Source: Escherichia coli (GTDB taxonomy: Bacteria; Pseudomonadota; Gammaproteobacteria; Enterobacterales; Enterobacteriaceae). From it: 64,000 nt of DNA. The notes beneath the pieces are model-generated. The model was given only the letters and a program-made list of their open reading frames with translations. It searched no databases and was not told the DNA's origin. Below are positions 1-19,109 of the stretch, piece after piece. Where the stretch lies: assembly GCF_003019035.1 (NCBI RefSeq), contig NZ_CP027447.1. One strand, given 5' to 3'. Within the stretch, counting starts at the first letter, position 1. Each line of letters starts with the position of its first letter. Position numbers and translations under genes: made by a program.

Positions 1-52
1 ACTGACGGTCAGCGATCCGTTCCTCGGTCAGTACCAACAACTGGTCCGCGAC

Positions 53-1951
53 GTGGTGATTCCTTATCAGTGGGATGCCTTGAACGATCGTATCCCAGAA
101 GCGGAACCCAGCCATGCGATTGAAAACTTTCGCATTGCCGCCGGACTTCAGGAGGGTGAATTTTACGGGATGGTGTTTCAGGACAGCGACGTCGCCAAAT
201 GGCTGGAAGCGGTAGCCTGGTCGCTGTGCCAGAAGCCGGACGCCGAACTGGAAAAAACCGCCGACGAGGTGATTGAACTGATCGCTTCCGCCCAGTGCGA
301 AGATGGCTATCTCAATACTTACTTTACGGTAAAAGCGCCCGAAGAACGCTGGAGCAATCTGGCGGAGTGCCATGAACTTTACTGCGCCGGTCATCTGATT
401 GAAGCCGGAGTCGCCTTCTTCCAGGCCACGGGCAAGCGGCGCTTGCTGGAAGTGGTTTGCCGTCTGACCGATCATATCGACAGCGTATTTGGTCCAGGTG
501 AAAGTAAGTTACACGGTTATCCTGGTCACCCGGAAATTGAACTGGCACTAATGCGCCTGTATGAAGTGACCGAAGAGCCGCGCTACCTGGCGCTGACGAA
601 CTATTTTGTCGAACAGCGTGGTGCGCAACCGCACTATTACGACCAGGAATATGAAAAGCGCGGGCAGACCTCGCACTGGCACACCTACGGCCCGGCGTGG
701 ATGGTGAAAGACAAAGCCTACAGCCAGGCACATTTGCCCATCGCACAGCAGCAAACCGCCATTGGTCACGCGGTACGTTTTGTCTACCTGATGACCGGCG
801 TCGCGCATCTCGCCCGTTTAAGTCACGATGAAAGCAAGCGTCAGGATTGCTTGCGGCTGTGGAACAATATGGCCCAGCGTCAGTTATATATTACCGGCGG
901 CATTGGCTCACAAAGCAGCGGCGAAGCGTTCAGCAGCGATTACGATCTGCCGAATGACACGGTTTACGCCGAAAGTTGTGCTTCCATCGGCCTGATGATG
1001 TTCGCCCGACGAATGCTGGAAATGGAAGGCGACAGTCAATATGCCGATGTGATGGAGCGCGCGCTGTACAACACTGTGCTCGGCGGCATGGCACTGGATG
1101 GCAAACATTTCTTCTATGTGAATCCGCTGGAAGTACATCCAAAATCGCTGAAATTCAACCATATCTACGATCACGTTAAGCCGATCCGCCAGCGTTGGTT
1201 TGGCTGCGCTTGTTGTCCGCCAAATATCGCCCGCGTACTGACCTCGATTGGTCATTATCTCTACACGCCGCGTGAAGATGCGTTGTATATCAACATATAC
1301 GCAGGAAACAGCATGGAAGTGCCGGTAGAAAATGGCACGTTGCGCCTGCGGGTTAGCGGGAACTATCCGTGGCAGGAACAGGTGACAATTGCGGTTGAAT
1401 CGCCCCAGCCGGTGCGTCATACGCTGGCTTTACGTCTGCCGGACTGGTGCACACAGCCGCAGATCATATTGAATGGGGAAGAGGTCGAGCAGGATATTCG
1501 TAAAGGGTATTTGCACATTACCCGCGAATGGCAGGAGGGCGACACGCTGAATCTAACTTTGCCAATGCCAGTACGTCGCGTTTACGGTAACCCGCTGGTG
1601 CGTCACGTCGCCGGAAAAGTGGCGATTCAGCGCGGCCCGCTGGTGTATTGCCTGGAACAGGCCGACAACGGCGAGTCACTGCATAACCTGTGGCTGCCCG
1701 CCGATGCGCCATTTACGACATTTGAAGGCAAGGGATTGTTCCGCCATAAGATCTTAATCCAGGCACCGGGTTACCGGTATGAACAGAGCAATCCAGAGCA
1801 GCAACCGCTGTGGCATTACGACAGTGCGCCAGCCAAACGCCAGCCGCAAACTCTGACGTTTATTCCGTGGTTTAGCTGGGCTAACCAGGGTGAAGGCGAA
1901 ATGCGGATCTGGGTGAATGAGGAAAAGCATTGCCATCCGGAGGTTGGATAA
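53..1951 (+). CDS. Glycoside hydrolase family 127-like (DUF1680, beta-L-arabinofuranosidase-type) protein; true N-terminus may lie upstream of the window
   Basis: 632-aa ORF; frame is open back to position 2 with no in-frame stop, and position 53 is a GTG, so the start is uncertain. Cys-rich segment FGCACCPPNIARV resembles the Cys-containing active-site region of GH127 enzymes. Family assignment is from memory. Confidence 0.65.
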   Translation: MVIPYQWDALNDRIPEAEPSHAIENFRIAAGLQEGEFYGMVFQDSDVAKWLEAVAWSLCQKPDAELEKTADEVIELIASAQCEDGYLNTYFTVKAPEERWSNLAECHELYCAGHLIEAGVAFFQATGKRRLLEVVCRLTDHIDSVFGPGESKLHGYPGHPEIELALMRLYEVTEEPRYLALTNYFVEQRGAQPHYYDQEYEKRGQTSHWHTYGPAWMVKDKAYSQAHLPIAQQQTAIGHAVRFVYLMTGVAHLARLSHDESKRQDCLRLWNNMAQRQLYITGGIGSQSSGEAFSSDYDLPNDTVYAESCASIGLMMFARRMLEMEGDSQYADVMERALYNTVLGGMALDGKHFFYVNPLEVHPKSLKFNHIYDHVKPIRQRWFGCACCPPNIARVLTSIGHYLYTPREDALYINIYAGNSMEVPVENGTLRLRVSGNYPWQEQVTIAVESPQPVRHTLALRLPDWCTQPQIILNGEEVEQDIRKGYLHITREWQEGDTLNLTLPMPVRRVYGNPLVRHVAGKVAIQRGPLVYCLEQADNGESLHNLWLPADAPFTTFEGKGLFRHKILIQAPGYRYEQSNPEQQPLWHYDSAPAKRQPQTLTFIPWFSWANQGEGEMRIWVNEEKHCHPEVG

Positions 1952-2062
1952 GGCGCTCGCGCCGCATCCAACGTAGGGAGCACATTGCCTGATGCGACGC
2001 TTAACGCGTCTTATCAGGCCCACGAGTCGGTGCAGTTGCCCGCTAACCATCGAAACGCGAGA

Positions 2063-2473
2063 TTAAACGCCCGGCAATACACGCCGGGCAGCTTCTGCCA
2101 GAAACGCACTTCTGTTGGCGTAGTCTGGGTTATTGCGCACGTAGGTATCAATCTTGTTCAGTAACCTTTTCGGCATCGTAATATTGATACGTTCAGCCCG
2201 ACCTTCGAACTGATTCATATTGATATCCACCAGCAACCATTGCCCGCCAATAAAGTCCTGCGCACGCTGGACCAGATGTGTTTCCACAGAGCCTGGAAGC
2301 GGCAACTCTTCATCCATCTCGCATAAGGTTTCGAAGTGCGCGACCAGTGCACTTCGCGCATCCTGGAAAGCGTTGTCCAGCGTATCACCAGCAAAATAAC
2401 AGCCTGGAACATCAGGGAAAAAACCGCTGGCGCTGCCGTCAGGATCACTGTGGATATAGGCGGGATAAAACAT
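2063..2473 (-). CDS. hicB: HicB-family antitoxin with C-terminal ribbon-helix-helix-like tail
   Basis: 136-aa ORF 16 bp downstream of hicA on the same strand; strong AGGAGG Shine-Dalgarno 5 nt before the ATG; C-terminal NRSAFLAEAARRVL resembles an RHH DNA-binding motif. Confidence 0.75.
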   Translation of the reverse strand: MFYPAYIHSDPDGSASGFFPDVPGCYFAGDTLDNAFQDARSALVAHFETLCEMDEELPLPGSVETHLVQRAQDFIGGQWLLVDINMNQFEGRAERINITMPKRLLNKIDTYVRNNPDYANRSAFLAEAARRVLPGV

Positions 2474-2489
2474 ATTGCCTCCTGAAATT

Positions 2490-2675
2490 TTAAAATGTTA
2501 AACCAGCCTGACGCCCAATTTGCGCCAGCGTACCGGGCTTAATATCTTTTTTAGGGTGCGGAACCGTCACCAGACCCGGATGAACAGGGTGGCGGAACTG
2601 ATGATGACTGCCACGGGTTCGAATATGTTCCCAGCCATGCTGCTTCAGGATGGCGATCACGTCTGCACTTTTCAC
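2490..2675 (-). CDS. hicA: HicA-family mRNA-interferase toxin
   Basis: 61-aa ORF with GTG start; MKSADVIAILKQHGWEHIRTRGSHHQF matches the HicA pattern (KxxELIKxLEKNGW...GSH with conserved His); toxin-first, antitoxin-second order typical of hicAB. Confidence 0.75.
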   Translation of the reverse strand: MKSADVIAILKQHGWEHIRTRGSHHQFRHPVHPGLVTVPHPKKDIKPGTLAQIGRQAGLTF

Positions 2676-2717
2676 ATCCCTGCCCTTCCATGATTATACA
2701 CACGATACACACAATTA

Positions 2718-2731
2718 GTGATAACAATCAC
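2718..2731. promoter_or_regulatory. Short palindrome GTGAT-AACA-ATCAC upstream of hicA (candidate HicB operator)
   Basis: 5-bp inverted arms about 43-56 nt upstream of the hicA start codon; position fits an autoregulatory operator, but the palindrome is short. Confidence 0.25.
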
Positions 2732-2950
2732 GATAGCGCGATTTATATGGGCCGTCAGGGGGATAAAGTTGACTCAGGAATGCCGCTCGGAAGAAGAATA
2801 ACGGTGTGCAGTAACTTGTTGAAAAGATGCGAGGAGACTCGTAATTAAGTTCAATCAATATTCAGTCATTCAAGACGTAGACATTTGAATTGGTAAAACG
2901 CGTAAGCGTCGCATCAGGCAATGAATACCCAATGCGACCAGCTTCTTATA

Positions 2951-4489
2951 TCAGAACAGCCCCAACGGTTTATCCGAGTAGCTCACCAGCAGGCACTTGG
3001 TTTGCTGGTAATGCTCAAGCATCATCTTATGGGTTTCGCGTCCGATGCCCGACTGTTTGTAGCCGCCAAACGCCGCATGTGCCGGGTAAGCGTGATAACA
3101 GTTGGTCCACACGCGCCCGGCCTGAATGCCGCGCCCCATCTTATAGGCCAGATTACCGTTGCGGCTCCAGACACCCGCGCCCAGGCCATATTGCGTGTCG
3201 TTCGCCAGCTCCAGCGCTTCTTCCATAGTTTTGAAGGTGGTCACCGCCAGCACCGGACCAAAAATTTCTTCCTGGAACACGCGCATATTATTCTGACCAA
3301 ACAGAATCGTCGGTTCGAGGTAGTAGCCGTCTTTCAGTTCGCCTTCCAGCAGCTTGCGCCGCCCGCCGGTGAGCACGTCTGCGCCCTCTTTTTTACCAAT
3401 ATCAATGTAGTTGAGGATGGTTTCCAATTGCCCGTGCGAAACCTGCGCCCCCATTTGCGTCACGCTGTCGAGCGGGTTACCGCTACGAATGCTTTCGACA
3501 CGGCGGATGGCGCGTTCCATAAAGCGTTCGTAGATAGACTCCTGCACTAAAGCACGGCTTGGACAGGTGCAAACTTCGCCCTGGTTAAAGGCAAACAGTG
3601 CAAAGCCTTCCAGCGCTTTATCGAAAAAGGCATCTTCTTCATCCATCACATCAGCAAAGAAGATATTTGGCGACTTGCCGCCCAGTTCCAGGGTTACCGG
3701 AATAATATTTTGCGTGGCGTACTGCATAATTTGTTGGCCCACTTCCGTTGATCCGGTAAACGCCACTTTGGCGATGCGTTTCGAGGTCGCCAGATATTCG
3801 CCAATTTCCCCACCAGCGCCGTTAACCACGTTCACCACGCCCGGCGGCAGTAAATCACCGACGATTTCCATTAGCAGCAGTACAGAAAGCGGGGTAAGAC
3901 GTGCGGGTTTCAGCACCACACAGTTGCCCGCCGCCAGCGCGGGAGCCATTTTCCAGCTCGCCATCAGCAGCGGGAAGTTCCACGGAATAATCTGCCCCAC
4001 CACGCCTAACGGTTCGTGGAAGTGATAAGCCACAGTTTCGCTATCCACTTCACTAATACCGCCTTCCTGTGCCCGGATACACGAGGCGAAATAGCGGAAA
4101 TGGTCAATCGCCAGCGGTACATCAGCAGCACTGGTTTCGCGAATGGGTTTGCCGTTATCCCAGGTTTCAGCCGTCGCTAACAGTTCAAGGTTTTGTTCCA
4201 TTCGATCGGCAATCTTAAACAGAATTGCCGCGCGATCCTGCACCGAGGTATGTGCCCATTTATCTTTCACTTTATGCGCGGCATCCAGCGCCAAATCGAT
4301 GTCTCGTTTGCCCGAAGACGCCACTTCGCACAGCAGCTGCCCGGTCACCGGCGTCAGGTTCTGGTAATACTCGCCGTCGGCAGGGGCTACCCACTCGCCG
4401 CCGATAAAGTTGTCATAACGGGCTTTTAACTTAAGAGGAAAACCATACTCGCCGGGCTTAATCTGTGCTGAAGGGGGATTATTGGTCAT
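2951..4489 (-). CDS. aldB: Aldehyde dehydrogenase B (NADP-dependent)
   Basis: Translation begins [34 protein letters not shown]... (512 aa), recognisable as AldB. The ORF-track start at 4579 is an upstream in-frame extension; ATG at 4489 confirmed in sequence. Confidence 0.93.
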
Positions 4490-4596: not shown

Positions 4597-5892
4597 TTAC
4601 AGCGGATAATGCGCGAAGTACACGGCTTGCTGGTCATTAATTTTCTTCTCTTGCGCAAACCCTTCTTTAACAATTGTCCGTAAATCAGCTCGAGCCGTAT
4701 TATCAGAGACGCCCAGGCTCGCGCTAATTTCAGCAACTGTGTACTCTTTCCCCGGATTGGCGAGCATCACATTCAGGAGCGTTACCTGGCGCGGATTCAG
4801 GCGTTTAAGCACACCAGAGCTAAACAGCACACTATCGAGTTTTGCGCTTCGTTGTGTAATTTCATCGATATGCTGCTGCCAGTTTTGCAGAGCACGTTTA
4901 ATGACACCCGCCTGATATTCAAGGAAATAAGTCAGATCCATACCATCTGATTCAGTGTACTGGTAGCTGGCGGCATATTTGACCGGTGCAGCATGAAGCA
5001 AACGGCTGATGGAAATATATTTAAAGACATCGTAGCCCGATTTCAGCATATACCAGTAAAACAGCGCCCGACTGGTGCGCCCGTTGCCATCCCGAAACGG
5101 ATGTTCATGGGCCAGCATAAAATGCAGAATGCAGGCACGGACCAACGGATGAATATACCCTTCATGGCTGTTTAACCACTGGCAAACTTTTTCCAGCCGT
5201 TCCGGTAACAATGCCGCAGCGGGCGGTTGATGCACTATACTGCCATCATAGTCGGCGATCACAACATCATCTGTTTCACGAAATTCTCCCGGACGATATT
5301 TCGCGTCATTGATTCCACCCATACCAATGGCATGTAACTGGCGAATAAGCGCAGGTGTCAGCGGTTCTGCGAGTAAGTGCGGAATTTCCGCCATCAGCCG
5401 GGCATTTCCCGCAATCATATGCTCGTCTTCAGTGCGTGGCGACCGCCCTGTTTCCAGCATTTTTCTCGCCACCAGCGTTGTAGTATTCGCACCCTCCAGC
5501 TGGGAGCTGGTGATCGGCTCTTCCAGGCGTAACTGGCTTAACTCGGCTCCGGCCCCGCGTAACCGTTCAGTCTGATCTTTCAGCGCCAGCGCGGTAGCAC
5601 GTTTGTCGACAAGCTCGCACGCTTCTGCAATCACCGGGGTAATGTTGAATCCGGCCTGTTCACCCGCTTCATTGCAATAATTAATTCGTTGGATCGCCGC
5701 GTTGCGCGCCAGACGGGTAAGCGTCCACGCCACATCGACGTTTTCTCCTTTTTTGATGCGGTACTGCAACTCATCAAAAGGCAGATAACGTCCTTTTTCA
5801 TCGGTAACCCGGTTAAAGCGCAGGTGGGCCAGGAGTTCCTCACCCGATAAGTGTGATAAAGGAATAAGTCCGGGAGGTGATTTGATAGCCAT
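4597..5892 (-). CDS. Fic/Doc-family protein (putative AMP-transferase) with N-terminal inhibitory-helix motif and C-terminal winged-helix-like domain
   Basis: 431-aa ORF, ATG start. Fic motif [12 protein letters not shown] at residues 264-275 (nt 5068-5103); SSQLEG at residues 129-134 (nt 5491-5508) matches the (S/T)xxxE(G/N) auto-inhibition motif; C-terminal ~70 aa look like a wHTH. Confidence 0.85.
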
Positions 5893-11530: not shown

Positions 11531-14500
11531 ATGAGCGGAAAACCGGCGGCGCGTCAGGGCGACATGACGCAGTATGGCGGTAGCATTGTTCAGGGTTCTG
11601 CCGGGGTGCGTATTGGTGCCCCCACCGGTGTGGCCTGTTCGGTGTGCCCCGGCGGGGTGACGTCCGGCCATCCGGTCAATCCGCTGCTGGGTGCAAAGGT
11701 CCTTCCCGGCGAAACCGACCTTGCCCTGCCCGCCCCGCTGCCGTTCATTCTCTCCCGCACCTACAGCAGTTACCGGACAAAAACGCCCGCGCCGGTGGGG
11801 AGCCTCGGCCCCGGCTGGAAAATGCCTGCGGATATCCGCTTACAGCTGCGCGATAACACTCTGATACTCAGTGATAACGGCGGCAGAAGCCTGTATTTTG
11901 AGCACCTGTTTCCCGGTGAGGACGGTTACAGCCGCAGCGAGTCACTCTGGCTGGTGCGCGGCGGCGTGGCGAAACTGGATGAAGGTCACCGGCTGGCCGC
12001 ACTCTGGCAGGCGCTGCCGGAAGAGCTTCGCCTGAGTCCGCATCGTTATCTGGCGACGAACAGTCCACAGGGGCCGTGGTGGGTACTCGGCTGGTGTGAG
12101 CGGGTGCCGGAGGCGGAGAAGGCCACTTCCGGCGGGACGGAACCGTCCGCTTTTCCTGATACCCTGCCGGGTTACACCGAATATGGCCGGGACAACGGCA
12201 TCCGTCTGTCTGCCGTGTGGCTGACGCACGACCCGGAATACCCGGAGAATTTACCTGCCGCGCCGCTGGTGCGCTATGGCTGGACGCCACGCGGCGAACT
12301 GGCGGTGGTGTATGACCGCAGCAATACACAGGTGCGCAGCTTTACTTACGATGATAAATACCGGGGCCGGATGGTGGCGCACCGCCGCGCGGGCCGGCCG
12401 GAAATCCGTTACCGTTACGACAGCGACGGGCGGGTGACAGAACAGCTAAACCCGGCAGGCTTAAGCTACACGTATCAGTATGAGAAAGACCGCATCACCA
12501 TCACCGACAGCCTGGACCGCCGTGAAGTGCTGCACACGCAGGGCGAAGGCGGGCTGAAGCGGGTGGTGAAAAAGGAACACGCGGACGGCAGCGTCACGCA
12601 GAGTCAGTTTGACGCGGTGGGCAGGCTTAAGGCACAGACGGATGCCGCAGGCCGGACGACTGAGTACAGCCCGGATGTGGTGACGGGACTCATCACGCGC
12701 ATCACCACGCCGGATGGCAGGGCATCGGCGTTTTACTATAACCACCACAACCAGTTAACGTCAGCCACCTGGCCTGACGGGCTGGAAATACGCCGGGAAT
12801 ATGATGAATCCGGCCGTCTGATTCAGGAAACCGCACACAACGGCGATATCACCCGCTACCGTTATGATAATCCACACAGTGACTTCCCCTGCGCAACGGA
12901 CGATGCCACCGGCAGCCGGAAAACCATGACGTGGAGCCGTTACGGTCAGTTGCTGACCGTCACTGACTGTTCCGGTTATGTAACCCGTTATGACCATGAC
13001 CGCTTCGGGCAGATGACGGCGGTGCACCGCGAGGAAGGCCTGAGCCAGTACCGCGCATACGACAGCCGTGGACAGTTAATTGCGGTGAAAGACACGCAGG
13101 GCCATGAAACGCGGTATGAATACAACGCCGCCGGTGACCTGACCGCCGTCATTGCCCCGGACGGCAGCAGAAACGGGACACAGTACGATGCGTGGGGAAA
13201 GGCCGTCCGTACCACGCAGGGCGGGCTGACCCGCAGTATGGAATACGATGCTGCAGGACGGGTCATCCGCCTGACAAACGAAAATGGCAGCCACACCACC
13301 TTCCGTTACGATGTACTCGACCGGCTGATACAGGAAACCGGCTTTGACGGCCGCGCACAGCGTTATCACCACGACCTGACCGGCAAACTTATCCGCAGCG
13401 AGGATGAGGGGCTGGTCACCCACTGGCACTATGACGAAGCAGACCGCCTCACGCAGCGCACCGTGAATGGCGAAACCGCAGAGCGGTGGCAGTATGACGA
13501 ACGCGGCTGGCTGACAGGCATCAGCCATCTCAGCGAAGGGCACCGGGTGACGGTGCATTACAGGTATGATGAGAAAGGCCGCCTGACCGGTGAGCGCCAG
13601 ACGGTGCATCACCCGCAGACGGAAGCACTGCTCTGGCAGCATGAAACCAGACATGCGTACAACGCGCAGGGGCTGGCGAACCGCTGTATACCGGACAGCC
13701 TGCCCGCCGTGGAATGGCTGACTTATGGCAGTGGTTACCTGGCAGGGATGAAGCTGGGTGACTCGCCCCTGGTGGAGTACACCCGCGACCGCCTGCACCG
13801 GGAAACGCTGCGCAGCTTCGGCCGTTATGAACTCACCACCGCTTATACCCCTGCCGGGCAGTTACAGAGCCAGCACCTGAACAGCCTGCAGTATGACCGC
13901 GATTACACCTGGAACGACAACGGCGAACTCATTCGCATCAGCAGCCCGCGCCAGACCCGGAGTTACAGCTACAGCGACTCCGGCAGGCTGACCGGCGTTC
14001 ACACCACCGCAGCGAACCTGGATATCCGCATCCCGTATGCCACGGACCCGGCAGGTAACCGCCTGCCCGACCCGGAGCTGCACCCGGACAGCACCCTCAG
14101 CATGTGGCCGGATAACCGTATCGCCCGTGACGCGCACTATCTTTACCGGTATGACCGTCACGGCAGGCTGACGGAGAAAACCGACCTCATCCCGGAAGGG
14201 GTTATCCGCACGGATGATGAGCGGACTCACCGGTACCATTACGACAGCCGGCACCGGCTGGTGCACTACACGCGGACACAATATGCAGAGCCGCTGGTCG
14301 AAAGTCGCTATCTTTACGACCCGCTGGGCCGCAGGGTGGCAAAACGGGTATGGCGACGTGAACGGGACCTGACGGGCTGGATGTCGCTGTCACGGAAACC
14401 GGAAGTGACCTGGTACGGCTGGGACGGCGACCGGCTGACCACGATACAGAACGACAGAACCCGCATCCAGACGATTTATCAGCCGGGGAGCTTCACGCCA

Positions 14501-15571
14501 CTCATCAGGGTCGAAACCGCCACCGGTGAGCTGGCGAAAACGCAGCGCCGCAGCCTGGCGGATGCGCTTCAGCAGTCCGGCGGCGAAGACGGTGGTGATG
14601 TGGTGTTCCCGCCGGTGCTGGTGCAGATGCTCGACCGGCTGGAAAGTGAAATCCTGGCTGACCGGGTGAGTGAGGAAAGCCGCCGCTGGCTGGCATCGTG
14701 CGACCTGACGGTGGCGCAGATGCAAAACCAGATGGAACCGGTGTACACGCCGGCGCGAAAAATTCACCTGTACCACTGCGACCATCGCGGCCTGCCGCTG
14801 GCGCTTGTCAGCACGGAAGGGGCAACAGCGTGGTACGCAGAATACGATGAATGGGGCAACCTGCTGAATGAAGAGAACCCGCACCAGCTGCAGCAGCTCA
14901 TCCGCCTGCCGGGTCAGCAGTATGATGAGGAGTCCGGCCTGTATTACAACCGCCACCGCTATTATGACCCGCTGCAGGGGCGGTATATCACTCAGGATCC
15001 GATTGGGCTGAAGGGGGGATGGAACCTGTATGGATATCAATTGAATCCGATATCAGACATCGACCCCCTGGGTTTATCTATGTGGGAGGATGCAAAATCG
15101 GGGGCATGTACTAATGGTCTTTGCGGCACACTATCCGCTATGATAGGTCCAGATAAGTTTGATTCTATAGATAGCACCGCATATGACGCCTTAAATAAAA
15201 TAAATAGCCAATCTATTTGCGAAGATAAAGAGTTCGCTGGTTTAATATGTAAGGATAATAGTGGCAGATATTTCTCAACAGCACCTAACCGAGGGGAAAG
15301 AAAAGGATCATATCCATTCAATAGCCCTTGCCCTAATGGTACTGAGAAAGTATCAGCTTATCATACTCATGGTGCAGATAGTCATGGAGAATATTGGGAC
15401 GAAATATTTTCAGGCAAAGATGAGAAAATAGTTAAAAGTAAAGATAACAATATCAAGTCATTTTATTTGGGCACGCCCAGTGGTAATTTTAAAGCAATAG
15501 ATAACCACGGGAAGGAAATAACAAACGGAAAAGGATTACCTAATGTCTGCAGAGTTCATGGTAATATGTAA
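11531..15571 (+). CDS. rhsA: Rhs-family polymorphic toxin (PAAR-like N-terminus, YD-repeat core, variable C-terminal toxin tip)
   Basis: 1346-aa ORF; N-terminal [17 protein letters not shown]...; many YD/RYxYD repeats; core ends at DPxGL (DPLGL, nt 15062-15076) followed by an AT-rich ~164-aa C-terminal domain with several Cys; located between yibF and yibA. Confidence 0.9.
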
Positions 15572-15926
15572 AAAAATATTGTTTAGGAACTGTGTCATTG
15601 TATCTTTGTTTGTTTTTACATACAACACATGGGCGCAGTGTAATAATAATATTAAAATAATGCGCAAGTATGAAAGTGAGGGTAAATATACCGTTAGAAA
15701 TTTGGTTAAAAATAAAGCTATAGCATTGGAATTAGCTGAGATATATGTTAAGAATCGTTATGGGCAGGATGCCGCAGAAGAAGAAAAACCATATAAAATC
15801 ACTGAGTTAACAACAAGTTGGGTTGTTGAAGGCACCATTCACTCAGACCAAATTGCTGGTGGGGTTTTTATTATAGAAATAGGCAAAAATGATGGGGGAA
15901 TTCTGAATTTTGGCCACGGAAAATAA
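15543..15926 (+). CDS. Candidate Rhs immunity protein (hypothetical)
   Basis: 127-aa ORF overlapping the last 29 nt of the rhs gene; AAGGA Shine-Dalgarno about 7 nt before the ATG; hydrophobic N-terminus; AT-rich like the toxin tip. Assigned by position only. Confidence 0.45.
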
Positions 15927-16030
15927 GTATGTAAGGATAATCAAACATCGTGTGCGCTGATGGCAGAGTAGGTGGAGGACTCCAGACAGTCAAACGATAA
16001 AAAAAGATAGCCTTTATGGAGGTTCCTGCA

Positions 16031-16873
16031 ATGTCAAATACATACCAGAAAAGAAAGGCAAGTAAAGAGTATGGTTTATATAATCAATGTAAGAAACTAA
16101 ATGATGATGAATTATTTCGCTTACTTGATGATCACAATTCCTTGAAAAGGATTTCATCTGCCAGAGTATTACAGTTAAGAGGTGGGCAAGACGCTGTTAG
16201 ATTGGTAATTGAGTTCTGCTCTGATAAAAATTATATCCGTAGAGATATCGGAGCATTTATACTCGGGCAAATAAAAATTTTCAAAAAATGCGAAGATAAT
16301 GTGTTTAATATTTTGAACAATATGGCATTGAATGATAAGAGCGCTTGCGTTCGAGCTACGGCAATCGAGTCAACGGCTCAGCGATGCAAGAAAAACCCAA
16401 TTTATTCACCTAAAATAGTAGAACAATCTCAAATTACTGCTTTTGATAAATCGACTAATGTCAGACGTGCTACAGCATTTGCTATTTCTGTTATCAATGA
16501 TAAAGCAACAATTCCACTATTGATTAATCTGTTAAAAGATCCAAATGGAGATGTCAGAAACTGGGCCGCATTTGCAATAAATATCAATAAATATGATAAT
16601 AGTGATATTAGGGATTGTTTTGTGGAGATGCTTCAGGATAAAAATGAGGAAGTCCGTATTGAAGCAATAATCGGACTTTCCTACAGAAAAGATAAAAGGG
16701 TTTTATCTGTTTTATGCGATGAGTTAAAAAAAAATACTGTTTATGATGATATCATTGAAGCTGCGGGTGAATTAGGTGATAAAACGCTACTTCCTGTTTT
16801 AGATACTATGTTGTACAAGTTTGATGACAATGAAATTATAACTTCCGCTATTGATAAGCTGAAGCGTTCATAG
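16031..16873 (+). CDS. yibA: HEAT/armadillo-like repeat protein
   Basis: 280-aa product from ATG 16031 (MSNTYQKRKASKEYGLYNQ...), GGAGG Shine-Dalgarno 8 nt upstream; ORF-track start 16016 is 5 codons further up. Matches my recollection of E. coli YibA. Confidence 0.8.
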   Translation: MSNTYQKRKASKEYGLYNQCKKLNDDELFRLLDDHNSLKRISSARVLQLRGGQDAVRLVIEFCSDKNYIRRDIGAFILGQIKIFKKCEDNVFNILNNMALNDKSACVRATAIESTAQRCKKNPIYSPKIVEQSQITAFDKSTNVRRATAFAISVINDKATIPLLINLLKDPNGDVRNWAAFAININKYDNSDIRDCFVEMLQDKNEEVRIEAIIGLSYRKDKRVLSVLCDELKKNTVYDDIIEAAGELGDKTLLPVLDTMLYKFDDNEIITSAIDKLKRS

Positions 16874-16920
16874 CGTGAGTTGCCTATGCACAGTGGGGTA
16901 TTCCCGCCGGCACGGTGCAG

Positions 16921-17040
16921 ATGCTCGATCGGCTGGAAAGTGAAATCCTGGCTGACCGGGTGAGTGAGGAAAGCCGCCGCTGGCTGGCATCGTGCGGCCT
17001 GACGGTGGCGCAGATGAAAAAACAGATGGAACCGGTGTAC
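16921..17040 (+). pseudogene. 5' portion of an orphan rhs core-end ORF, separated from its 3' part by an ISAs1-family insertion
   Basis: nt ~16901-17040 nearly duplicate rhsA nt ~14618-14746 (encoding [40 protein letters not shown]); reading frame runs into the IS left end and stops there. Confidence 0.7.
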
Positions 17041-18331
17041 CAGGGAAAGATCACGTAACGCTGCTTTTTTGTACTAAACAATTCGCATTTTATGTTTAAA
17101 AATTGAGATATTCCTCATTACCTGAAGCTGTTTTTTATTGCTTATACATGATCAAATACTCCTTACATAATTAAGGAGAACAAAATGGTACTTAAAAAAT
17201 TGATGGAACATATTTCTATTATCCCCGATTACAGACAAGCCTGGAAAGTGGAACATAAATTATCGGATATTCTACTGTTGACTATTTGCGCCGTTATTTC
17301 GGGTGCAGAAGGTTGGGAAGATATAGAGGATTTTGGGGAAACACATCTCGATTTTTTGAAGCAATATGGTGATTTTGAAAATGGTATTCCTGTTCACGAT
17401 ACCATTGCCAGAGTTGTATCCTGTATCAGTCCTGCAAAATTTCACGAGTGCTTTATTAACTGGATGCGTGACTGCCATTCTTCAGATGATAAAGGCGTCA
17501 TTGCAATTGATGGAAAAACGCTCCGGCACTCTTATGACAAGAGTCGCCGCAGGGGAGCGATTCATGTCATTAGTGCGTTCTCAACAATGCACAGTCTGGT
17601 CATCGGACAGATCAAGACGGATGAGAAATCCAATGAGATTACAGCTATCCCGGAACTTCTTAACATGCTGGATATTAAAGGAAAAATCATCACAACTGAT
17701 GCGATGGGTTGCCAGAAAGATATTGCAGAGAAGATACAAAAACAGGGAGGTGATTATTTATTCGCTGTAAAAGGAAACCAGGGGCGGCTAAATAAAGCCT
17801 TCGAGGAAAAATTTCCGCTGAAAGAATTAAATAATCCAGAGCATGACAGTTACGCAATTAGTGAAAAGAGTCACGGCAGAGAAGAAATCCGTCTTCACAT
17901 TGTCTGCGATGTCCCTGATGAACTTATTGATTTCACGTTTGAATGGAAAGGTCTGAAGAAATTATGCGTGGCAGTCTCCTTTCGGTCAATAATAGCAGAA
18001 CAAAAGAAAGAGCCCGAAATGACGGTCAGATATTATATCAGTTCTGCTGATTTAACCGCAGAGAAGTTCGCCACAGCAATCCGAAACCACTGGCACGTGG
18101 AGAATAAGCTGCACTGGCGTCTGGACGTGGTAATGAATGAAGACGACTGCAAAATAAGAAGAGGAAATGCAGCAGAATTATTTTCAGGGATACGGCACAT
18201 CGCTATTAATATTTTGACGAATGATAAGGTATTCAAGGCAGGGTTAAGACGTAAGATGCGAAAAGCAGCCATGGACAGAAAGTATCTGGCGTCAGTCCTT
18301 GCGGGGAGCGGGCTTTCGTAATCTTTCCCTG
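17041..18331 (+). mobile_element. ISAs1-family insertion sequence (H-repeat element), apparently intact
   Basis: Imperfect terminal inverted repeats CAGGGAAAGATCACG... (left) and ...CGTAATCTTTCCCTG (right; first 11 nt identical); flanked by 9-bp direct repeat CCGGTGTAC (17032-17040 and 18333-18341); carries a full-length transposase ORF. Confidence 0.85.
17185..18321 (+). CDS. ISAs1-family transposase (H-repeat-associated protein)
   Basis: 378-aa [54 protein letters not shown]..., recognisable as the H-repeat (YhhI/YdcC-type) transposase found in E. coli Rhs elements. Confidence 0.9.
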
Positions 18332-18335
18332 CCCG

Positions 18336-19109
18336 GTGTACACGCCGGCGCGAAAAATCCACCTGTACCACTGCGACCATCGCGGCCTGCCGCTGGTGCT
18401 TATCAGCACGGAAGGGGCAACAGCGTGGTACGCAGAATATGATGAATGGGGCAACCTGCTGAATGAAGAGAACCCGCACCAGCTGCAGCAGCTCATCCGC
18501 CTGCCGGGTCAGCAGTATGATGAGGAGTCCGGCCTGTATTACAACCGCCACCGCTATTATGACCCGCTGCAGGGGCGGTATATCACTCAGGATCCAATTG
18601 GGCTGAAGGGGGGATGGAATTTTTATCAGTATCCGTTGAATCCGATAACTGATATTGACCCGTTGGGATTAGCGACCTGTTTATACAGCATAACTTTAGG
18701 TATGCTTTCATGCGTTTCAGATACGCCAAGTGATGATAATTCTTATGGTGTGCTTACTATTTCAGTCGCCTCTGATAATAATGGTAATAATATGCAATGT
18801 AAAAATAATCCTGGTTGTACACACTTACAAAATAGAGGCCCAATACCTCAAGGGGTATGGAGCTGGAATGTTAATGGTCCTGGAGCAACCAATAGAAAAC
18901 CTAATGGTATACGTTTAGTACCGTCAGCAAATACAGAAACGTATAATCGTGATGGATTTTTAACACATAGTTGTTTAAACGCTTTTGGTCCATCTTTAGG
19001 ACCTCGATTCTGTTCCGAGGGTTGTATAACTGGTTCATCTAATGACATGCAAAAATTAAATGAGCTAATATTTTCAGAGCCAGATAGCACATTAACAGTG
19101 ACGGACTAG
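18336..19109 (+). CDS. Orphan Rhs C-terminal fragment: core end plus a distinct toxin tip (3' part of the disrupted orphan)
   Basis: 257-aa ORF, GTG first codon; N-terminal 105 aa nearly identical to the rhsA core end (…[19 protein letters not shown]…[10 protein letters not shown]…), DPLGL at 18657-18671, then an unrelated AT-rich tip ([17 protein letters not shown]...). Confidence 0.8.

Follow-up and report, generated by a model that had tools for sequence, protein, structure and literature searches.

A GH127 glycoside hydrolase gene next to hicAB in Escherichia coli: last gene of a variable regulator-symporter-hydrolase unit with the predicted active site of a beta-L-arabinofuranosidase

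The window analysed here, a stretch of 64,000 nucleotides from contig NZ_CP027447.1 of an Escherichia coli genome (RefSeq assembly GCF_003019035.1), opens inside a gene for a protein of glycoside hydrolase family 127 (GH127), which is followed by two REP-like hairpins and, on the opposite strand, by hicB, hicA and aldB (Table 1). The original prediction had described the hydrolase gene as an ORF at 53..1951 (+) coding for 632 amino acids. This frame is present, but it begins at an internal GTG and the full protein comprises 659 amino acids, so the smaller size is an artefact of the internal GTG and of the window edge. As had been anticipated, the frame is open toward the window start and can be followed back to window position 2, such that window 2..1951 (+) encodes residues 11-659 of the protein. 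The context further upstream was read from E. coli SCU-301 (NZ_CP051751.1), whose sequence is 100% identical to window positions 1-2900 and 99.83% identical over 20.9 kb, which points to the same strain or a very close one as the source of the window. In SCU-301, the true ATG lies 29 nt to the left of the window and is preceded by an AAGGAG ribosome-binding site, and the corresponding RefSeq CDS (WP_096986800.1, 659 aa) carries the label 'glycoside hydrolase family 127 protein'. The gene is routinely annotated as GH127 in RefSeq and is an ordinary E. coli gene.

Table 1. Coordinates of the GH127 gene, of the codons for its predicted active-site residues and of the downstream features in the window.
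Feature	Position	Strand	Basis or remarks
GH127 CDS, 3' 1950 nt	1..1951	+	codons 11-659, frame from position 2, TAA 1949-1951
His134-Glu-Leu-Tyr137, aligned to HypBA1 His142 and Tyr145, predicted sugar-binding site	371..382	+	alignment, PMC10850190
His186, aligned to HypBA1 His194, predicted sugar-binding site	527..529	+	alignment, PMC10850190
His266-Ala-Val-Arg269, aligned to HypBA1 His270 and Arg273, predicted sugar-binding site	767..778	+	alignment, PMC10850190
Glu318, aligned to HypBA1 acid/base Glu322	923..925	+	alignment, PMC8106489
Glu334-Ser-Cys336, aligned to HypBA1 zinc ligands Glu338 and Cys340	971..979	+	alignment, PMC10728902, PMC8106489
Cys412-Ala-Cys414-Cys415; Cys414 aligned to HypBA1 nucleophile Cys417, Cys415 to zinc ligand Cys418	1205..1216	+	alignment, PMC8106489, PMC10728902
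Two REP-like hairpins (1943-1972 and 1987-2019)	1943..2019		inverted repeats; straddle and follow the hydrolase stop
hicB	2063-2473	-	Pfam PF15919, E 7e-36
hicA	2490-2675	-	Pfam PF07927, E 2e-23
aldB	2951-4489	-	follows hicAB

The assignment to GH127 (DUF1680), which had originally been suggested by a cysteine-rich GCACCPPN segment, agrees with the domain composition of the protein, as all three GH127 Pfam domains are matched above their gathering scores. These are the (alpha/alpha)6 catalytic domain PF07944 (E 1.1e-111, 374 bits against a cut-off of 24.9), the middle domain PF20736 (E 7e-24, 84.2 bits against 24.2) and the C-terminal domain PF20737 (E 2e-24, 85.3 bits against 23.7), the latter two representing the beta-sandwich part. 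The segment itself was found as WFGCACCPPN at window 1199-1228, with GCACCPPN beginning at residue 411 in the 659-aa numbering; the full motif reads WFGCACCPPNIARV, and its three Cys codons lie in one short run of the gene (Table 1). Among solved structures, the best match is PDB 4QJY from Geobacillus stearothermophilus (E 2e-234, 783 bits, about 54% identity over 630 aligned residues), followed by HypBA1 from Bifidobacterium longum (3WKW; E 4e-151, 508 bits, full length). Both of these closest solved relatives were deposited as beta-L-arabinofuranosidases, while the distant GH127 structures 6EX6 and 5MQO reach only 387 and 322 bits, and structures of GH146 enzymes score much lower than 4QJY and HypBA1. 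No signal peptide was found at the N-terminus of the 659-aa protein (MNISEVDLHKLTVSD), and the enzyme should therefore be cytoplasmic. Separately, the top NCBIfam match of the protein is the aceric acid hydrolase model NF049879 (BT1003 type), yet its 455 bits do not reach half of the equivalog cut-off (950), and the match is confined to residues 252-649; this identification was rejected.

A view on the individual residues was obtained by alignment with HypBA1, whose residue roles were drawn from reviews and later papers (PMC8106489, PMC10728902, PMC10850190). In HypBA1, three Cys and one Glu coordinate the zinc, with Cys417 acting as nucleophile and Glu322 as acid/base (PMC8106489, PMC10728902); the zinc ligands are E338, C340, C417 and C418 (PMC10728902), and the sugar is bound by H142, Y145, H194 and R273 (PMC10850190). 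For the E. coli protein, the alignment predicts a Zn2+ site of the same composition, made up of E334, C336, C414 and C415, as well as a putative Cys nucleophile C414 and a putative Glu acid/base E318 at the positions of C417 and E322. The sugar-binding set of the HypBA1 type is likewise kept (H134, Y137, H186 and R269, contained in the motifs CHELYCAGH, GHPEIE and GHAVR), and all five enterobacterial orthologues compared, from E. coli, Salmonella, Klebsiella and Kosakonia, have C412, C414 and C415 unchanged. One region differs: about 12 residues of loop A of HypBA1 (aa 35-49), which covers the active site (PMC10850190), are absent from the E. coli protein, a gap shared with Ara127N from Geobacillus. 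The plus-side subsites of the E. coli enzyme may therefore differ from those of HypBA1.

Linked transporter or regulator genes, which the original prediction had proposed to look for upstream, are both present just to the left of the window, as read from SCU-301. The transporter (466 aa) is encoded immediately left of the window, and its stop codon lies 10 nt before the hydrolase ATG, overlapping the AAGGAG site of the hydrolase gene. The protein passes the model of the GPH (glycoside-pentoside-hexuronide):cation symporter family, TIGR00792, scoring 333.8 bits where 231.35 are required, and also matches Pfam MFS_2 (E 2e-73). Its nearest subfamily model is that of YagG, but the score of 356 bits stays below the subfamily cut-off of 610, and the symporter should therefore be regarded as a paralogue and not as YagG. 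Further upstream, a divergently oriented gene codes for a regulator of 271 aa with AraC ligand-binding and helix-turn-helix domains. The unit thus consists of a divergent AraC-family regulator gene and a two-gene symporter-hydrolase operon, in which the GH127 gene comes last. No promoter was found when the operon and the stretch between the regulator and transporter genes were scanned for sigma-70 consensus sequences. The regulator-symporter intergenic region contains blocks that are invariant across four genera, and these appear to include a CRP-like element (CCTGA-N6-TCACA) and a weak TTGTTG/CAGAAT pair. The lack of a consensus promoter would fit an activator-dependent promoter, although it proves nothing. 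Near the unit in SCU-301, no other glycosidase and no secreted partner enzyme is encoded.

The arrangement may be compared with several known systems. The closest solved relative, Ara127N (the araN product of G. stearothermophilus T6; 4QJY/4QK0), matches the E. coli protein from end to end. The two agree in their three-domain layout, carry both the GCACCPPN and the E-x-C motif, and have an N-terminal loop that is shorter than that of HypBA1. Ara127N is reportedly intracellular and encoded in an arabinan-utilisation cluster, and araN forms part of a large multi-enzyme set of genes there that also includes ABC transporters. Its host is a Gram-positive thermophile, whereas the E. coli gene resides in a minimal unit of regulator, symporter and hydrolase. 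Within E. coli itself, the K-12 gene pairs yicJ-yicI and yagG-yagH each combine a GPH symporter with an intracellular glycoside hydrolase acting on an imported plant-derived oligosaccharide. The design of symporter followed by hydrolase is the same in the unit described here, but the hydrolases of these pairs belong to GH31 and GH43 and not to GH127. HypBA1 (Bll1HypBA1, BLLJ_0211; 3WKW/3WKX/7DIF), finally, shares the catalytic, zinc and sugar-binding residues with the E. coli protein. In B. longum it is an intracellular enzyme cleaving imported beta-Ara2, and it works alongside an ABC importer and a GH121 beta-L-arabinobiosidase that acts outside the cell (PMC8106489). The E. coli unit differs from this system in having a GPH symporter in place of the ABC importer and in lacking a secreted enzyme.

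The best explanation for what was observed, namely the family, the active-site residues, the missing export signal, the gene order, the conservation and the purifying selection (see below), is that the GH127 gene codes for a cytoplasmic, retaining, zinc-dependent beta-L-arabinofuranosidase (a 'cysteine glycosidase'), which acts as the last member of the regulator-symporter-hydrolase unit and feeds L-arabinose catabolism. We assign a probability of about 0.7 to this reading, in which the substrate, the inducer, the regulation and any cross-feeding are the parts that we infer. According to the proposed scheme, the GPH symporter would import a small beta-L-arabinofuranoside, candidates being Araf-beta1,2-Ara or short arabino-oligosaccharides capped with beta-Araf. 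Such compounds might originate from plant extensins, arabinogalactan proteins or arabinan, and would probably be released by other microbes; as no gene for a secreted partner lies close by, the scheme leaves their extracellular release to other organisms. In the cytoplasm, Cys414 would attack the anomeric carbon, with Glu318 serving as acid/base, and the freed L-arabinose would enter the araBAD pathway. A literature search for GH127 in connection with enterobacterial genera or O157 yielded no activity assay or functional study.

A rather unlikely, though not negligible, alternative is that the gene encodes a GH127 enzyme with another substrate, such as a different furanoside, a plant-derived or dietary small-molecule glycoside or a sugar of the aceric acid type. 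More than one specificity occurs within GH127, since BT1003 is an aceric acid hydrolase (PMC10850190), and the corresponding model is the one that gives the best NCBIfam match, while the loop covering the active site of HypBA1 is shortened here. However, the aceric acid score falls far below the cut-off of its model and covers only part of the protein, all four sugar-binding residues of HypBA1 are conserved, and the nearest solved relatives are those deposited as beta-L-arabinofuranosidases, which argues for an enzyme of the latter type.

The distribution of the unit among E. coli strains is uneven. Of 5426 complete E. coli genomes, 2313 (43%), among them those of O157:H7 and O145, carry the three-gene unit intact, with at least 80% of its 4.4 kb covered; about 2470 retain a scar alone, and the unit is undetectable in another 641. 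According to the original prediction, K-12 is not known to have such a gene at this position and has other genes flanking aldB on this side; both statements are correct, as K-12 has no intact copy and keeps only the remnants ysaC and ysaD. These two pseudogenes of MG1655 (b4648 and b4649) are located between sgbE and yiaT, at the same site as the intact unit, and are 90-93% identical to it. ysaC corresponds to the final 102 nt of the AraC-family gene, of whose 3' end the scar keeps 104 nt, and ysaD to an internal piece of 190 nt from the GH127 gene, close to its 3' end (window 1645-1834). Nothing of the symporter gene survives the deletion of 4021 bp between the remnants (L001 15624-19644), which also took out 85% of the hydrolase gene and the greater part of the regulator gene. 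The absence from K-12 is thus a deletion, which is already catalogued in the form of the pseudogenes ysaC and ysaD; a literature search on these found no functional study.

Outside E. coli, orthologues with 83-87% identity are found in Salmonella, Kluyvera, Klebsiella, Kosakonia, Scandinavium, Citrobacter and Enterobacter. Klebsiella michiganensis carries the three-gene unit in the same slot, after a gene for an sgbE-type aldolase. In one Salmonella genome, the regulator and hydrolase genes occupy the slot after sgbE, but the transporter gene is missing; a tblastn search of this locus for a transporter remnant found none, and the alignment indicates a clean, in-frame-like deletion that left only the first five codons. 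Kosakonia contains the same three genes at another chromosomal site, near an integrase-arm fragment. The implied oddity of the gene at this position is contradicted by its presence at the same site in K. michiganensis, in Salmonella and in the large carrier fraction of E. coli. The original prediction had also named a core gene conserved at this location as a finding that would speak against it, and of these two properties the gene has the second, but not the first. The GC content of the unit (0.54-0.55) lies close to that of the flanks (0.55-0.58). The GH127 gene is under strong purifying selection, with dN/dS values of 0.035-0.083 for all pairs; the comparison within E. coli gives 0.059, and comparisons across genera give about 0.07. 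Its loss from more than half of the complete E. coli genomes, and that of the transporter alone from one Salmonella genome, show that it is dispensable; the unit is an old and vertically inherited, yet dispensable, locus and no strain-specific insertion.

These losses also bear on the question of whether the locus is cryptic or decaying, with no present physiological role in E. coli and on its way to being lost. The many genomes with either the scar or nothing detectable, the K-12 remnants ysaC and ysaD, the precise transporter deletion in the Salmonella genome and the promoter scan without a consensus match are all compatible with such a fate. However, the reading frames are intact in every carrier examined, the catalytic residues are all retained, the low dN/dS values hold within E. 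coli as well as between genera, and the intergenic blocks upstream of the transporter are invariant in four genera, which makes a decaying locus improbable.

The neighbourhood of hicAB, as given in the original prediction, is supported by Pfam matches to both HicB and HicA (Table 1). Adjacent on the minus strand with a spacing of 16 nt, they form a HicAB type II toxin-antitoxin pair, and hicBA (2063..2675) is a convergent neighbour that lies outside the sugar unit. An intact hicAB at the site near aldB is present in 505 of the 5426 complete E. coli genomes, and the GH127 gene is directly followed by hicAB in 489 of the 5426. About 3400 further genomes, including K-12, contain a hicB tail of 38-84 nt (mostly 49 nt) that adjoins aldB, whereas O157:H7 has the intact GH127 unit followed by yiaTUVW and not by hicAB. 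A strain-specific island acquired horizontally together with hicAB, as might be imagined from the absence of the unit from K-12, its proximity to a toxin-antitoxin pair and the different site in Kosakonia near an integrase-arm fragment, is highly improbable, because E. coli, Salmonella and K. michiganensis all have the unit in one and the same slot behind sgbE, K-12 shows deletion scars and no empty site, the GC content of about 55% is that of the flanking genes, and O157:H7 and most other carriers have the unit without hicAB (2313 genomes with the unit against 489 with the hicAB junction). The features looked for as marks of an island, namely absence from this site in related genera, an empty site and atypical composition, were thus contradicted by slot, scars and GC content.

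The discovery value of the gene is small, as its membership of GH127 is a matter of routine annotation and the pieces left in K-12 are catalogued pseudogenes. The unit does, however, represent a variable sugar-utilisation locus that separates E. coli lineages, being carried by O157:H7 and the present strain and deleted in K-12. If the beta-L-arabinofuranosidase reading is extended to ecology, the AraC-GPH-GH127 unit might be a cross-feeding device scavenging beta-L-arabinobiose or oligosaccharides capped with beta-Araf, a tentative idea that we hold with considerable reserve. If true, about 40% of the strains of E. coli, together with several further enteric genera, would use it to pick up sugars that bifidobacteria or Bacteroides free from dietary extensins and arabinogalactan proteins with their secreted enzymes, and carrying or lacking the unit would influence which niches are occupied in the gut or on plants. 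In a pangenome study of isolates from inflammatory bowel disease (IBD), an accessory E. coli GH127 gene, which may or may not be the one described here, co-segregates with invasion of epithelial Caco-2 cells, a relationship that is a correlation only (PMC11879602); the function of this GH127 was assigned there by homology to HypBA1 (PMC11879602; see also the commentary PMC11954838). With the unit and its natural deletion variants now defined, the reported correlation with invasiveness (PMC11879602) should be easy to examine.

At its 3' side, the operon probably ends with the REP-like hairpins that straddle and follow the hydrolase stop codon. A similar REP-like unit, in inverted orientation, adjoins aldB in K-12 and O157.

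The AraC-family regulator gene and the divergent operon of GPH symporter and GH127 hydrolase are separated by an intergenic region carrying blocks of sequence that are invariant in Escherichia, Klebsiella, Kosakonia and Salmonella, and which may be regarded as candidate operator and promoter elements (feature table). One of them, GATC-N5-TCACA, corresponds to a CRP-like half-site arrangement, which takes the form CCTGA-N6-TCACA in E. coli. Salmonella enterica CP022663.1 retains the regulator together with the promoter region and the hydrolase, but its GPH transporter gene is cleanly deleted, leaving a junction in which the five initial codons of that gene (ATGACCTCTACAGCC) are fused directly to the ribosome-binding site TTAAGGAGCAC and the start codon (ATG) of the hydrolase gene.

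Gene loss further extends to the surroundings of the unit. The yiaK-sgbE operon (2,3-diketo-L-gulonate) is entirely missing from E. coli O157:H7 F3113, and a remnant of yiaJ abuts the AraC-family gene there; the two sides of the locus have thus been hit by independent deletions in different lineages. As judged from the 5426 complete E. coli genomes of the collection, hicAB was common beside aldB in former times and has since been lost from most genomes, because the intact gene pair is found at this position in 505 genomes, while about 3400 have kept only a hicB tail of 38-84 nt (mostly 49 nt). A short hicB remnant is present between yiaW and aldB in both K-12 and O157:H7; it consists of 27 C-terminal codons with 74% amino acid identity to the hicB product of the window. 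On the other side of aldB, a gene for a Fic-domain protein lies between aldB and yiaY, as it does in O157:H7; in K-12 this gene is absent and aldB directly adjoins yiaY.

The C-terminus of the GH127 protein is variable and shaped by a repeat element, since the stop codon and the final three codons (Glu-Val-Gly) are contained in the first REP-like hairpin, and the O157:H7 allele ends three codons sooner (HCHP*).

Positions of the features in the window and in the loci of SCU-301 (L001), O157:H7 F3113 (L003), K-12 MG1655 (L004) and Salmonella enterica CP022663.1 (L005)
Feature	Window	Other loci	Remarks
Regulator-symporter intergenic region		L001 16336-16560	left of window
Invariant intergenic blocks		L001 16336-16560	TTTGATTATT; GATC-N5-TCACA; GGTCGGAATCG; CTTGT
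Transporter deletion		L005 7738-8015	
yiaJ remnant		L003 7859-8001	141 nt
GH127 final codons and stop	1940-1951		
hicB 3' end or remnant	2063-2146	L004 8727-8823; L003 16149-16247	
Fic-domain protein	4597-5892 (-)		431 aa; Pfam Fic, E 1e-19
RHS region downstream of yibF	about 11531-18900	L001 29531-36902	RefSeq annotation of near-identical SCU-301

Across 20.9 kb, window positions 1-20917 differ from L001 18001-38900 by 23 gap openings but only 11 mismatches. That indels outnumber substitutions points to sequencing errors at homopolymers in one assembly or the other, and not to true divergence. In SCU-301, the genes annotated in the RHS region are those for an RHS core protein and an ISAs1 transposase, both of them frameshifted, along with an Imm57 immunity gene and an additional piece of RHS; the region also contains internal repeats of 148-339 nt with ~93% identity.
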